Below, in pieces: positions 7,750 to 48,673 of a DNA stretch of 64,000 nucleotides. This DNA comes from a virus, in IMG/VR virus record IMGVR_UViG_3300025425_001694. One strand, written 5' to 3'. The notes beneath the pieces were generated by a model that saw only the letters and a program-made list of their open reading frames with translations, had not been told where the DNA came from and ran no database searches. The translations under genes were made by a program, and so were the position numbers. The number at the start of each line of letters is the position of its first letter. Position 1 is the stretch's first letter.

Positions 7750-9705
7750 TTATGCAGCAATCTGACTAAAGTTTTTAATTTTTTCAAATCTGACGTGCGA
7801 TTCAAACTTTTCGCTAAATTGGTCCCCGCGGTGTGAGATCACAAAGATATTGTCGTTATTATTTAAATTATGTAAAGTATCAATTAAGTTTTCAACACCA
7901 GTTGCATCCATTGCGCCATCAAGAGTTTCGTCAAGAATAAGCAAGTTTGTTGAAACTGAATTGCGCAGTTTAGCAACAGCTCGCCAAGACATCATAATAG
8001 AAAGAGTAATCCGAAGCTTCTCGCCTTCAGAAAACGACGAATACGAAAAGGCATCACGGAAACGAGATTTAATTATTTCATTAAAGTTTTCGTCAAGATG
8101 GAAGTCAACAAACAGTTCAAACGCAGACAGATATTTGTTAATAAGTTTATTCATAACTGGAATGTATTGTTTAATAATTCGTGTTTTAATTCCACCATCC
8201 TTGAGCATTGTATTCACTACACTCAATGTTTCTTTTTTATCAAACAATTCGTTTTGTTCAGACTGCAATAGTTTAAGGTTTGTATTATAACCATCAAGCT
8301 TACTCGTGTCAACTTCTTCAACTTCTTTTTCTGCGTCGTCAAGTTCTTTTTTATACGACTTGAGTGCATTCATCGACATTTTAATTTGAGCTCTATATTC
8401 TCCAATATTTAAATTGTTTTCCTGAATTTTATCTTCAACATTTGAAATTTCTTCAATTCTTGATTCACATTCATTTATCTTTTCCAATAAATTACCAAGA
8501 CCGTCTTCTATTTCAGTAACCTTATTACCCTTTTCAGTAATAACGTTTTCCTTGAAATCGTGATCAATACCTTGTTTGCAAGTAGGGCAATTATCATTAT
8601 CGTGGTAAAAGCTCAAATCTTTTTTATATGTTCTAATGTTATTTTCTAATTCACGCTGTAAACCTTTTGCATTTTCTAGACGCTTTTTAATTGTTTGTTT
8701 ATCAGATATAGTTCCAATAAGATCTTTGATTGTCGTTTCAACTTTTTCAATTTCATCTTTTTCTGTTTCTATTTTTTCAAGATGAGCTTGGATTCTTTCT
8801 TTAATTTTGTTAACTTCCGTTTCCTTAATTTTTAAAATAGAATCATTATGTTCTTTTGCACTTTCAATCTTTGAATCTATAATATCTATTTGATAGTTAT
8901 TTTCCGTTATAGATTCTTTGTTTGTAGAAACTTTATCTTTTAGTAAATTATTCATTGTACTAAAAACTTGGATGTCAAGTAGATCTTCAATTATTTCACG
9001 GCGAGAGTGCGCTGGAAGCTCCATAAAAGGAACATACGTAGCACTACCCAATACCACAATTTGATTAAACGACTTATAATTTAGGCCGAGAATGTTTTGT
9101 TCCAAATACGATTGGTAATCTCTTGATGCGGCATCTTGGTCAACCAATTCACCACCGCGATAAATTTCAAAGATATTTGGTTTAATACCACGACGAATTA
9201 AATACTCATTTCCTGAAACTAAAAATTCAATTTCAACTACAGCATCTTTTTGATTAATAGAGTTTACTAACTGTGGTTTATTTACTTTACGAAACGGTTT
9301 TCCATATAAAGCAAAAGTAATAGCATCAAGCATTGTGGAATTGTGACTTACAATACCATTAGCGTAAAATTCTTTTACATCTTCAATCTGTAAATCAAAC
9401 AAATCTTCGGTAAAGTCTTGCTTAACAACAGATATAACTTTTTCAAAACCGTCTTTGGTATCTAGATATTCTCCAGGTTTTATATTTTTAATTGGTATCC
9501 AATCGGAGCTATACAGCATGTGATCTGGAGATCCTTCTACTGATTTGCCGGATTCCAAAACTACCTTCATAACTTCAGAATCGTATGCAGTTACATCAGC
9601 ATATTCTATTCGTTTTTTACCTTGGCGAGTGGTGGTAGTAAGACCGCCAATACATTCTGGATGGTGCTTATAAAATTCAACAATCGTTTCAATGTTTGTT
9701 AACAT
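7750..9705 (-). CDS. gp46: recombination endonuclease subunit gp46 (Rad50/SbcC), C-terminal half fused to IntC
   Basis: intein C part ending FYANGIVSHN, then STMLDAITFALYGKPFR; CPTC hook, FSEGEK signature, LILDE Walker B, ISH. Confidence 0.93.
   Translation of the reverse strand: MLTNIETIVEFYKHHPECIGGLTTTTRQGKKRIEYADVTAYDSEVMKVVLESGKSVEGSPDHMLYSSDWIPIKNIKPGEYLDTKDGFEKVISVVKQDFTEDLFDLQIEDVKEFYANGIVSHNSTMLDAITFALYGKPFRKVNKPQLVNSINQKDAVVEIEFLVSGNEYLIRRGIKPNIFEIYRGGELVDQDAASRDYQSYLEQNILGLNYKSFNQIVVLGSATYVPFMELPAHSRREIIEDLLDIQVFSTMNNLLKDKVSTNKESITENNYQIDIIDSKIESAKEHNDSILKIKETEVNKIKERIQAHLEKIETEKDEIEKVETTIKDLIGTISDKQTIKKRLENAKGLQRELENNIRTYKKDLSFYHDNDNCPTCKQGIDHDFKENVITEKGNKVTEIEDGLGNLLEKINECESRIEEISNVEDKIQENNLNIGEYRAQIKMSMNALKSYKKELDDAEKEVEEVDTSKLDGYNTNLKLLQSEQNELFDKKETLSVVNTMLKDGGIKTRIIKQYIPVMNKLINKYLSAFELFVDFHLDENFNEIIKSRFRDAFSYSSFSEGEKLRITLSIMMSWRAVAKLRNSVSTNLLILDETLDGAMDATGVENLIDTLHNLNNNDNIFVISHRGDQFSEKFESHVRFEKIKNFSQIAA
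9340..9705 (-). mobile_element. split intein C-fragment (~122 aa, includes block B)
   Basis: block B GSPDHMLY, block F LFDLQI, block G NGIVSHN|S. Confidence 0.9.
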
Positions 9706-9865
9706 AATTTTCAATCTCATTAATAGTTACAACGCCTAATGGAACAAATCTTTTAATAATTTGTTCTTTCGTCATTAATTCATCTCTAAATAAATGCAAA
9801 AGATATTCTTCTACATCACTGTATGGTTTGTCGCACAAAGGACATGATAAACTCATTATATTCAT
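9689..9865 (-). CDS. 58-aa Zn-finger-like ORF between the gp46 halves (not in ORF track)
   Basis: translated by hand: MNIMSLSCPLCDKPYSDVEEYLLHLFRDELMTKEQIIKRFVPLGVVTINEIENYVNKH*; its 3' end overlaps the IntC start. Confidence 0.6.
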   Translation of the reverse strand: MNIMSLSCPLCDKPYSDVEEYLLHLFRDELMTKEQIIKRFVPLGVVTINEIENYVNKH

Positions 9866-9888
9866 CCGTTTCTTTTAATATGAAAGCA

Positions 9889-10101
9889 TTATACTTTTTG
9901 CTTTGCGAATTCTTTGAATTTCTTCATCACATCTTTATCAACAAAGCCTATTTCAACTTCAGTTGAGCCACGAAGGCACTTACCACTACCGTTCGATCCA
10001 CTTACTAAAGTAGTTTTGCTTTTATCTAAATTGATTTCAGTAAATACATTACCGGTTGATAGTACGTTTTTATAGCGTACTTTTTTAAATTGTATTTGCA
10101 T
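9889..10101 (-). CDS. gp46: gp46 N-terminal half (41 aa) fused to 29-aa IntN
   Basis: KNVLSTGN...GSNGSGK Walker A, directly followed by intein block A CLRGSTEV. Confidence 0.9.
   Translation of the reverse strand: MQIQFKKVRYKNVLSTGNVFTEINLDKSKTTLVSGSNGSGKCLRGSTEVEIGFVDKDVMKKFKEFAKQKV
9892..9978 (-). mobile_element. split intein N-fragment (29 aa, atypically short)
   Basis: CLRGSTEVEIGFVDKDVMKKFKEFAKQKV*. Confidence 0.85.
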
Positions 10102-11162
10102 TATAAATCCATTGCCTCTACATAAAGTTCATCAATAACTTTTTTGATTTTTTTCTTTTCTACTGTAGTTTCAATAGAATCAATATATGCATGTAGAATA
10201 TCTTTTGTTTCTTGGGTTTCATCGAGAATTTCATCTACACCAGAAGACTCTAGGTTGAGTGTATCATCAATAGATTTTACGTCAGCTGCTCCGCTATCTG
10301 CTATTTTATTTAGAAACGTATCATACAAATATGCATTTGTTCTATTTTTTACAATTACTTTTACATACGTATTTTTTAATGCATCAGTGTCAATATTCGT
10401 GATATCTTCAATAGTCATATCTTCGTCATCATATTCAATTTTATAGAAGATGCGATTAGGATTTTTTACAAGTTTAATATCTCGAGTCTCTGTATCAAAC
10501 ACATGAAAACCACGGCGACCGTTATAATCAGTCCATGTCATTTCGTATTGAGCGCCGAGGTATTTGATATTACCATATTCCGAAGGGTGGTGGAAATGGC
10601 CGGAATACACAGCTTCAAATCCAGAAAATATATCTTTCTTTAAACCATGATCACAAAGCATACCTTTCATCATTTCAAAACCTTCAATTTCAAAATGTCC
10701 TAAAAGAATGTTTGCGTCTGAAGAACTAATAGCGGCATGGCATTCTTCACGATTGTTTTTAGTAATCCACGGCACCATCATAAATTTAGTAGAACCAAAT
10801 GTTAATTCTACAGGTTCGCGGTCGTATATGTGGAAATTATCATATTCTTGTAGTAACAAAGACATAGAATTTACTTCGTTTGTATTTGTAAAATAAACAC
10901 TATGATTACCAACAACTGCGTGATATTCTATATTGCGAGACGCTAACTGGCTAAAGAAAAACTCTTTTGCTCTTTTCAATGTAACGTAGTTAATATACTT
11001 GCGTCTATCAAACGTATCACCGAGATCCATTACAGTTGTAATTTTGTTATCATCTAAGTAAGGAAAAAACACTTCTGCAAAAAACTTTTCTTGATGATCC
11101 AAAAATATTTTGCTATCACCTCTACAACCAAAGTGATTATCATTAATAAAAGCAATCTTCAT
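10101..11162 (-). CDS. gp47: recombination endonuclease subunit gp47 (Mre11/SbcD)
   Basis: DNHFG, GDTFD, GNH, GHFH metallophosphoesterase motifs; adjacent to gp46. Confidence 0.93.
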   Translation of the reverse strand: MKIAFINDNHFGCRGDSKIFLDHQEKFFAEVFFPYLDDNKITTVMDLGDTFDRRKYINYVTLKRAKEFFFSQLASRNIEYHAVVGNHSVYFTNTNEVNSMSLLLQEYDNFHIYDREPVELTFGSTKFMMVPWITKNNREECHAAISSSDANILLGHFEIEGFEMMKGMLCDHGLKKDIFSGFEAVYSGHFHHPSEYGNIKYLGAQYEMTWTDYNGRRGFHVFDTETRDIKLVKNPNRIFYKIEYDDEDMTIEDITNIDTDALKNTYVKVIVKNRTNAYLYDTFLNKIADSGAADVKSIDDTLNLESSGVDEILDETQETKDILHAYIDSIETTVEKKKIKKVIDELYVEAMDL

Positions 11163-46322: not shown

Positions 46323-46814
46323 ATGTTAAGCTTTAAAAAGTTCATGACTGAAGAAAAAAACTTACACATGACGCACGCGGAAGATGCTGTTATAGATGGC
46401 GGAATTACAGGTACTCGTAACGTTATTAATTACCTACGTGATATTCGTGATATGCTAGCAGGTAATACTAAAGCACCTGTCAACATTAGCGTTAAGTGGG
46501 ACGGTTGTATTCACGAAGACACTATTGTTCTAACCAATGCCGGTGATATGACAATCAAAGAAGTTGTTGAACGCTGTCAGTTGGATGATAATCTTATGGT
46601 AATGGGTAAGGAATTGGGTAGCCCATTACAATATGATCGCATGGTTCATATTCTAGCTGGTATGTCACAAGATGGCAAAAAGGCTTGGGTTGAAATTGAA
46701 TTGGAAGATGGATCAAAACTGAAAATGACAGAAGACCACGAAGTACATACTTCTAACCGCGGTTGGGTTAAAGCTGGTGAATTAACTGAAGAGGATGATG
46801 TGACCGAATTGTAA
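46323..46814 (+). CDS. KxDG ligase-like protein (DUF6267-like), N-extein plus 102-aa IntN
   Basis: KNLHMTHAED...SVKWDG then CIHEDT (block A) and TEDHEV (block B). Confidence 0.9.
   Translation: MLSFKKFMTEEKNLHMTHAEDAVIDGGITGTRNVINYLRDIRDMLAGNTKAPVNISVKWDGCIHEDTIVLTNAGDMTIKEVVERCQLDDNLMVMGKELGSPLQYDRMVHILAGMSQDGKKAWVEIELEDGSKLKMTEDHEVHTSNRGWVKAGELTEEDDVTEL
46506..46811 (+). mobile_element. split intein N-fragment (102 aa)
   Basis: CIHEDTIVLT...KMTEDHEVHTSNRGWVKAGELTEED; acidic. Confidence 0.9.
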
Positions 46815-46875
46815 AGTGTGATGGATACCGCCTCAAATTACATCTTTTTATAAATAAAAATAAAAGGAGGCTAAT

Positions 46876-47523
46876 ATGACTATTGAATTCACAGAAGAAA
46901 TGAAGACAAAATACATTGAGAAATACAAAGAAACGTATTCTGTATCAGAAGTATTGAGATCATTTGATAATGGAGTTGGAAGAAGTAGAGTAGTAAAGTT
47001 ATTAAAAGATGAAGGTATATACGAAGGGTTAACCGGCTCTAACTATCTCCGGAAGAAAGTTGAAAATAATGAAAAGATAATGACAGAGAGATACGGCGTT
47101 ATTAATTGGGGACAGACGAAAGAAGGCGGCTACAAAAAACAAAACAAAATACCATACCAAAAAATATCTTATTTAGATGATAAATACAGAGAATATAGAG
47201 CTGCGGTTGAAAAAGAAACAAAGAAGAATATAAAACATATAGACTTTCCAACATATTGTTATTATACTGGAATACAATTTGCAGACGAAGAAGGACTTGT
47301 TAATCCGAACGACCCAAGAAAGAGAAGTGTAGATCATAAGGTTCCGGTTATTATTTGTTATTTAAACGGTATATCAGTAGAGCAAGCAGGTAGTATAGAT
47401 AATCTTACTTTTGTTTTAAAATATGTAAATTCGGTTAAGTCTAACACAGAACACAAATCGTTTTTAGCGGTAGCGCATAAAATAAGAAAGGTTTTTATAA
47501 ATGAAGGTTATAAAAGTAATTAA
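46876..47523 (+). mobile_element. free-standing HNH-like homing endonuclease between the intein halves
   Basis: CYYTG...RSVDHKVP...NL......NSVKS; ERYGV.N repeat-like segment. Confidence 0.75.
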
Positions 47524-48673
47524 ACTAAAAGAGAAGTATGAGCAATATGATATTAGCACTACTTCCGAAAACTTTTATGTGCGAACAAACAATGGATACA
47601 TATTAATTCATAACTCGCCAGCTGTATTTGCTGGAATTGATCCTAGCGATGGTAAATTCTTTGTAGCTAAAAAGGGTATTTTTAATAAGAACCCAAAGCT
47701 ATATAAAACACACGCCGATATTGATGCTGATACTATTGGCAAGGCTGAATTAAACGCAAAATTAAAAATTGCACTCGACGAGTTTTCAAAGCTCGGAATT
47801 AAGGGTGTAGTACAAGGTGATTTTTTATATGAAAAAAGCGATATTAAAGAAGATAAGATTAATGGGGAATCGCATATTACTTTCCATCCTAATACGATTG
47901 TTTACGCTGTACCTAAATCGACTGCCCTTGCTAAAACAATACTCAAATCCAAAGTTGGAGTGGTCTGGCATACTGTATACCGAGGATCAAAACTTGAGGA
48001 AATGTCTGCAAGTTTTGGAGAAGAGATTGCAAGCGGTCTCAAAACAGTCCCGTCGGTCTGGTCAGTAGACGCAGTATTCAAAGATCAATCTGGCAACGCA
48101 ACATTTACCGCAAAAGAGACTGCTGATATTACAAAGGTAATATCTCAAATTGGTTCACTGTTTAGAACAATTCCAAAAAACACGTTTGATGCTTTAAAGC
48201 CAGGATCTCAGTATGATATTAATATGCGCCTCAATACTTACATCAATACAAAGGTTCGTGCCGGCGAAAGAATTGGTAGTCCAAAAACTTTTGTTAAAGG
48301 CTTTCAGAAATACTTAAGTGATTATTATGATAAAGAAATTGATAATAAAAAATCGCCAAAAGGTAAAGCAACCTGGCAAGCTAAAAAAGATAATGCCATG
48401 ATGTTTTTCAGTAAAGTTAAACCACGTGATTTAGAAAATCTTTTTACTATGTATAATTTAATCGTTGACGCAAAGCATACAATTATTCGTAAACTTGAAA
48501 ACGTTGATGGTTTAAAAACGCTACTCAAAACTAATAATGGTTATGAGGTTACAGGACAAGAAGGTTTTGTTGCTATTGACCGTTATGGTAAAAACGCACT
48601 AAAACTAGTCGACAGATTGCAATTTTCGTCAGCAAACTTTTCAGACAAGTATATTAAAGGATGGCAAAAATAA
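47501..48673 (+). CDS. 38-aa IntC plus C-extein of the KxDG ligase-like protein
   Basis: MKVIKVIK...YDISTTSENFY...LIHN|SPAVFAGIDP.DGKFFVAKKG, QGDFL, FHPNTIVY, EGFV, KLVDRLQFS. Confidence 0.92.
   Translation: MKVIKVIKLKEKYEQYDISTTSENFYVRTNNGYILIHNSPAVFAGIDPSDGKFFVAKKGIFNKNPKLYKTHADIDADTIGKAELNAKLKIALDEFSKLGIKGVVQGDFLYEKSDIKEDKINGESHITFHPNTIVYAVPKSTALAKTILKSKVGVVWHTVYRGSKLEEMSASFGEEIASGLKTVPSVWSVDAVFKDQSGNATFTAKETADITKVISQIGSLFRTIPKNTFDALKPGSQYDINMRLNTYINTKVRAGERIGSPKTFVKGFQKYLSDYYDKEIDNKKSPKGKATWQAKKDNAMMFFSKVKPRDLENLFTMYNLIVDAKHTIIRKLENVDGLKTLLKTNNGYEVTGQEGFVAIDRYGKNALKLVDRLQFSSANFSDKYIKGWQK

Follow-up and report, generated by a model that had tools for sequence, protein, structure and literature searches.

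The window, a stretch of 64,000 nt from IMG/VR virus record IMGVR_UViG_3300025425_001694, carries at the locus under study a series of genes that all lie on the minus strand, in the order UvsW-like helicase, gp55 late sigma factor, gp47, gp46 pieces and gp43 DNA polymerase, an arrangement that forms a replication/recombination module of the T4 type. The phage is T4-like. The stop of gp47 and the start of gp46 overlap by 1 nt. gp46, the only Rad50-like gene within the 64-kb window, is broken in its Walker A motif, between Lys and Ser, into two minus-strand ORFs that carry the two parts of an intein, IntN and IntC, as listed here:

10101..11162, minus strand: gp47, Mre11/SbcD-like nuclease partner (PHROG_100, SbcD-like, E 2.5e-99; Pfam Metallophos, E 3.5e-6)
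9979..10101, minus strand: gp46 N-extein, 41 aa, last residues GSNGSGK, the first part of Walker A (PHROG_77)
9889..9978, minus strand: IntN, 29 aa plus TAA (9889-9891), with Cys1 at 9978-9976 (aligned with 20 other split N-fragments)
9689..9865, minus strand: open frame of 58 aa (55 aa if the ATG at 9856 is taken as start) with a Cys-x2-Cys-x12-His pattern, between the gp46 halves
9340..9705, minus strand: IntC, 122 aa, with beta3 and alpha1 at the N-terminus, block B SPDH and block G SHN, ending at 9340 (motifs, intein models)
7750..9339, minus strand: gp46 C-extein, 529 aa plus stop (PHROG_77, NCBIfam SbcC/Rad50)

The first ORF (9889-10101, 70 aa) encodes 41 extein residues, followed by Cys1, 28 more intein residues and a TAA codon. 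After this stop come a 183-nt spacer and a new start, the ATG at 9705, which opens the second ORF (7750-9705, 651 aa) with 122 intein residues and then 529 extein residues. Both exteins align to the SbcC-like profile PHROG_77, residues 1-41 of the N-fragment to positions 294-333 (E 1.2e-13) and residues 128-654 of the C-fragment, in a 656-aa numbering, to positions 334-952 (E 1.4e-152), and they adjoin to the exact residue on this profile (333 and 334). Ser+1, at 9339-9337, completes Walker A, and the C-extein continues as Ser-Thr-Met-Leu-Asp plus 524 residues that include the zinc hook CPTC, the signature FSEGEK, Walker B LLILDE and the H-loop. NCBIfam SbcC/Rad50 models match this fragment as well.

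The intein halves have the hallmarks of class 1, namely nucleophiles at positions 1 and +1, a block B of the form T/S-x-x-H and a terminal His-Asn. IntN is composed of Cys1, the strands beta1 and beta2 (about 12 aa) and a helical tail with a conserved Phe21-x-x-Phe24. Cys1 is found in every N-fragment examined, the +1 residue is Ser or Thr in every relative, and Ser59, Pro60, His62, His121, Asn122 and Ser123 are invariant in 31 IntC relatives. On the C-fragment, the Pfam Intein_splicing match (E 5.8e-6) falls short of the gathering score, TIGR01443 intein_Cterm lies at the cut-off, and NCBIfam intein terminal models match; phmmer with IntC matches the RadA, gp41-1 and CatC intein structures. 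An earlier sequence-only reading had proposed that gp46 is split at Walker A by an intein that pairs a short IntN with a long IntC, and this is supported by the abutting profiles, the motifs and the intein models. All of the coordinates, motifs and residue counts that it gave hold, and the intein model and metagenomic allele searches that it had suggested gave matches to the C-fragment and both split and intein-free alleles. With 29 and 122 aa, the division is of the atypical, short-IntN kind. The element is, as judged from its sequence, most likely a class-1 intein, naturally split into a short IntN and a long IntC, inside the Walker A of gp46, and it is predicted to splice.

The position of the break can be related to the HINT fold through contiguous relatives. 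In the alignment, the minimal contiguous members (L098, P0007, P0027) pass directly from beta2 through a short turn into beta3 and helix alpha1, and in the AlphaFold2 model of L098 (pLDDT 92.5) residues 13-19 and 28-30 form strands and residues 31-40 a helix. Split members, like the longer contiguous ones, have an additional helix after beta2; in the model of one of these contiguous forms, L102, this helix occupies residues 21-30 (pLDDT about 90), and the linker behind it is of low confidence. The models of contiguous relatives (pLDDT 89.6 and 92.5, pTM 0.86) are HINT domains, and at E<=1e-3 Foldseek with a contiguous relative matches over 50 structures of inteins or Hedgehog proteins, the top one being VidaL 6vgv (E 1.2e-10, TM 0.85). 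The HINT fold of the window intein is thus taken from models of contiguous relatives that are 37-60% identical to it. Since IntC starts with beta3 and alpha1, and the extra helix follows beta2, the alignment, the two AlphaFold models and the top Foldseek match place the break in the beta2-beta3 turn. This is the S1 site, at which VidaL and PolB16 are divided, and S2, after alpha1, is that of AceL-TerL and GOS-TerL (2026 paper, PMC13014065). Phe21 and Phe24 of the IntN tail are conserved across diverged split members, and we infer that the tail acts as a docking helix.

The intein belongs to a wider family that occupies the P-loop of Rad50/SbcC-like genes. A word-index search with the IntC part yielded 31 relatives, most of them proteins of 651-657 aa that consist of IntC and C-extein, and six of 704-734 aa in which N-extein, IntN, linker and IntC share a single frame; free N-fragments of 69-70 aa were found too. 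When IMG/VR was scanned with a degenerate DNA form of the block-G motif, 28 loci were obtained, every one of them in a Rad50/SbcC-like gene at the junction of GK and S/T, and those with upstream sequence comprise 20 split (IntN 21-36 aa) and 2 contiguous inteins. HMMER, run exhaustively on 1.84 billion representatives, returned 497 clusters at E<=1e-3, of which 101 reach E<=1e-10, and roughly three quarters of the family (about 100 clusters at E<=1e-10) are split at the same point as the window intein. The rows classified for the intein tree include 107 split and about 36 contiguous forms, a few of them misclassified. This tree, built on a 114-column core, has little resolution (10 starred branches of 136). 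Split forms are mixed with contiguous ones in it, and well-supported branches force at least 5 changes; the order of the states is not given by the tree.

The spacing between the halves varies across split loci, from a 17-nt overlap through 35, 122, 149, 162 and 326 nt up to 1010-1339 nt. The most compact split form is seen in the region of L083:1494-1877 and in L109, where IntN is 21 aa, the N-fragment ORF and the IntC frame overlap by 17 nt and the spacer is zero. At 12 of about 20 diverged split loci the gap is long (1.0-1.34 kb), and in 9 of these 12 a nuclease-like ORF of 351-447 aa can be read, which combines repeated helix-turn-helix-like modules with a C-terminal nuclease-like domain of one of two types. 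Only weak matches, to REase/DUF559 and to a PHROG annotated as 'homing endonuclease', were obtained for these ORFs (MTES_1575, E 9e-4; DUF559, E 0.013; the PHROG, E 9e-4), most of them are without a curated family match, and no sequence match was found in the PDB; they may tentatively be placed, on sequence, in a Vsr-like family. Six of them (L088:7577-8707, L097:406-1530 and L101:8354-9481 versus L089:4223-5566, L108:5632-6930 and L106:1076-2131) have in common an N-terminal and middle region with repeated modules of the 'YW-KKGYS-EEA' type, and differ in which of two nuclease-like domains they have at the C-terminus, a pattern suggestive of a modular swap. At L092, where the gap is 326 nt, a C-terminal remnant of the endonuclease ORF is recognizable (E 5.6e-8). 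At another split locus, L099:11942-12076, the open frame 5' of IntN is just 45 aa, and the N-extein frame appears to be interrupted; this could be due to a frameshift, a further insertion or decay.

A matched natural pair is provided by L102:3331-3858, with a contiguous intein, and L089:4013-5942, with a split intein and a 447-aa endonuclease ORF. Their IntC proteins are 98% identical, with a dS of 0.14 that compares with 0.60 in the adjoining extein, which suggests that the intein has been shared more recently than the host gene. Where L089 has a cassette of 1349 nt, L102 has 48 nt. The linker of L102 was also considered as a leftover of the L089 endonuclease gene, with which it shares an 11-mer, and this was rejected, as 68 of 300 shuffles scored equally.

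In the window, no free-standing homing endonuclease gene of the fractured-gene type lies between the halves, and the gap holds only the 58-aa orphan ORF, whose 3' end overlaps the start of IntC by 17 nt. Its matches to C2H2 zinc fingers are all sub-threshold. No relatives of it outside this phage lineage were found among 5.8 billion clusters, and a comparison with the profile of the endonucleases of the intein family gave no similarity. On these two grounds, the idea that the ORF is an endonuclease remnant was rejected.

We consider it highly probable that gp46 is a fractured gene with a naturally split, short-IntN class-1 intein, and that trans-splicing yields a Rad50-like ATPase of 570 aa. 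In the proposed model, a single transcript probably covers gp47, both gp46 fragments and the small ORF between them, in support of which no minus-strand terminator was found between the gp46 halves. Ribosome-binding signals ahead of IntC are weak, and its translation may be coupled through the small ORF that runs into its start. The IntN, made of Cys1 and the beta1-beta2 core with an amphipathic helical tail, would dock with its 29 residues onto the nearly complete IntC of 122 residues and finish the HINT fold, as contiguous relatives suggest. An N-S acyl shift at Cys1 would then be followed by trans-esterification to Ser+1, cyclisation of Asn122 and an O-N shift. Lys41 would thereby be joined to Ser, making the Walker A loop GSNGSGKST, and the 570-aa ATPase would pair with gp47. 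The element probably descends from a mobile intein family that carries a homing endonuclease gene at the beta2-beta3 turn, the S1 site; the endonuclease gene would have been lost in the window phage, where the split stays as a fixed remnant.

That near-identical phages differ by the presence or absence of the whole cassette is indicated by an intein-free allele. The 90%-identity cluster of the gp46 C-fragment includes proteins of 570 aa, and one of these, P0048, is 99% identical to the gp46 exteins (41/41 residues in the N-extein, 525/529 in the C-extein) and reads GSGKSTMLD through the site, which agrees with the GSGK-STMLD junction that had been predicted from the split sequence. Its length equals the 41 + 529 residues of the predicted spliced product. 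The best 80 gp46 relatives in IMG/VR are all uninterrupted at the intein site. A megablast search of deposited phage genomes gave no match.

It could be argued that no splicing takes place, either because the halves hold the gp46 pieces together non-covalently or because the intein is inactive, and that the ATPase is a two-chain complex. Phage enzymes are known whose fragments are brought together by interaction domains of mobile-element origin (PMC3045599), and natural split inteins are often poor at splicing once purified (PMC11923092). However, none of the catalytic residues is missing or varies within the family, and without splicing about 150 foreign residues would separate the Walker A Lys from its Ser. 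In close pairs, moreover, the intein is under purifying selection, with an IntC omega of 0.05-0.10 that is similar to that of the extein, so that constraint on IntC is as strong as on the extein. This makes a two-chain complex unlikely. A decaying pseudogene, with recombination served by other factors, would fit with the loss of the endonuclease gene and with the orphan ORF in the gap, but both exteins are intact, as judged against P0048, all Rad50 motifs are present, and split forms persist in about 100 diverged lineages. A second strain, on IMG/VR contig L110/L001, is 99.5% identical, with only 21 substitutions over 4264 nt, no frameshift and the same stop, spacer and start. Decay is quite improbable.

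The same strain bears on whether the split was created by assembly or sequencing error, a doubt raised along with the first description of the locus, or whether the halves are joined at the RNA level or during translation. The exact N-fragment and C-fragment proteins are each recorded on 12 contigs from several sources, and an N-fragment variant, 99% identical, is found on 6 further contigs. The clean stop, the 183-nt spacer with its own ORF and the new start are therefore reproduced on independent contigs, the stop position is kept in diverged relatives, and the break falls at the homologous position in diverged phages. The insert is, in addition, an intein by sequence and fold. No point was found that supports an artefact or joining at the level of RNA or translation, and the probability of either is practically negligible. 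Trans-splicing of a fractured gp46 is thus retained as the preferred reading, and we infer on good grounds that the ATPase would depend on it.

VidaL is reportedly a naturally atypically split intein described by Burton et al. in 2020 (cited in PMC13014065), and AceL-TerL, GOS-TerL and the consensus Cat intein are said to go back to Thiel in 2014 and to Bachmann and Mootz in 2015. VidaL (PDB 6vgv/6vgw) resembles the gp46 intein in having its break between beta2 and beta3 (S1), although the sequence match is weak (E 6e-4) and the two are only about 19% identical. It is Cys-dependent, and its aligned chain has a Ser after the mutated terminal Asn, as at the +1 position of gp46. Its IntN is 16 aa, whereas that of gp46, lengthened by a conserved helical tail, has 29 aa; neither a helical IntN tail nor an endonuclease context is reported in the VidaL literature covered. 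AceL-TerL, GOS-TerL and Cat (PDB 6dsl) are, like the gp46 intein, naturally split, come from phage metagenomes and pair a short IntN of 25-37 aa with a long IntC; the Cat intein is a distant relative (CatC, E 0.013 alone and 3e-6 with the family profile). The likeness to AceL-TerL that had been noted from the sequence holds for the short IntN and long IntC, but not for the split site. AceL-TerL and GOS-TerL have the large terminase as host and are split at S2 (PMC13014065), whereas the gp46 intein has a Rad50-like host and is split in the beta2-beta3 turn at S1 and not after alpha1. TerL-type IntC proteins start past beta3 and alpha1, as an S2 split predicts, and both elements are kept in the gp46 type; the +1 residue is Cys in AceL-TerL, GOS-TerL and Cat, Thr in the TerL relatives examined and Ser in gp46. 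Eight terminase large-subunit C-fragments (P0140, P0146, P0150, P0155, P0163, P0168, P0171 and P0196) start with a long IntC, and their +1 residue is a Thr within the Walker A of TerL (HN followed by TT); to judge by sequence, these seem to be atypically split inteins of the S2 type in the P-loop of the terminase, distantly related to the gp46 family.

The fractured-gene hosts of Dassa et al. 2009 are gp41, IMPDH, DnaE, NrdA, NrdJ, ligase and terminase, without gp46, Rad50 or SbcC among them, and they break at the canonical site, with the exception of terminase (PMC2677866). [quoted passage not shown] Insertion of inteins in the P-loop of DnaB, MCM, RFC and RecA/RadA is a known hotspot (PMC4760082), but these inteins are contiguous or canonically split, unlike that of gp46, and neither Rad50 nor SbcC is named in the main text of that paper. 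The IntN of atypically split inteins ranges from 15 to 37 aa, and few natural split inteins with a short IntN have so far been characterised (AceL-TerL, GOS-TerL, VidaL and PolB16; PMC13014065). No report on a split intein in gp46, or on inteins in Rad50, SbcC or gp46, was found in the full-text literature covered, which does not prove absence. The earlier suggestion was that the gp46 intein may be a new orthogonal tool; the element is not a one-off, as it belongs to a large and mostly split family that is common in uncultured phages. The class of element is known; what is new is the host gene, the endonuclease arrangement at the S1 site in relatives and the helical IntN tail.

Short-IntN split inteins are prized because the short half is accessible by peptide synthesis for protein labelling. 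A large and diverse natural family split at S1 offers many tool candidates, including matched split/contiguous pairs, and amounts to a natural experiment on what split inteins need for association, namely the helical tail. The element is seen at several stages of its life cycle, with an empty site, with an endonuclease, with an endonuclease remnant and free of endonuclease. For a T4-like phage, the ATP-binding loop of a core recombination ATPase would exist only after protein splicing. A broader reading is possible but doubtful: the tail would be a docking module specific to S1-split inteins, and the catalytic core of IntN would be just about 12 residues. The roughly 100 diverged clusters, mostly split and some contiguous, would then form a panel of mutually orthogonal, very-short-IntN ligases, and the repeated switching between split and contiguous states would mean that the splitting of inteins is reversible in nature.

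The window holds a second fractured gene, on the opposite strand:

46323-46814, plus strand: ORF with an N-extein ending KWDG and an IntN of canonical length, about 100 aa
46876-47523, plus strand: ORF of 215 aa, HNH-like by eye, with no Pfam match
47501-48673, plus strand: ORF with an IntC of about 38 aa ending IHN, followed by the C-extein

The exteins at 46323-48673 adjoin on Pfam DUF6267, covering profile positions 1-47 and 48-373 (E 1e-8 and 1.7e-86). This is, unlike the gp46 locus, a classical canonical-site split with an intervening gene.
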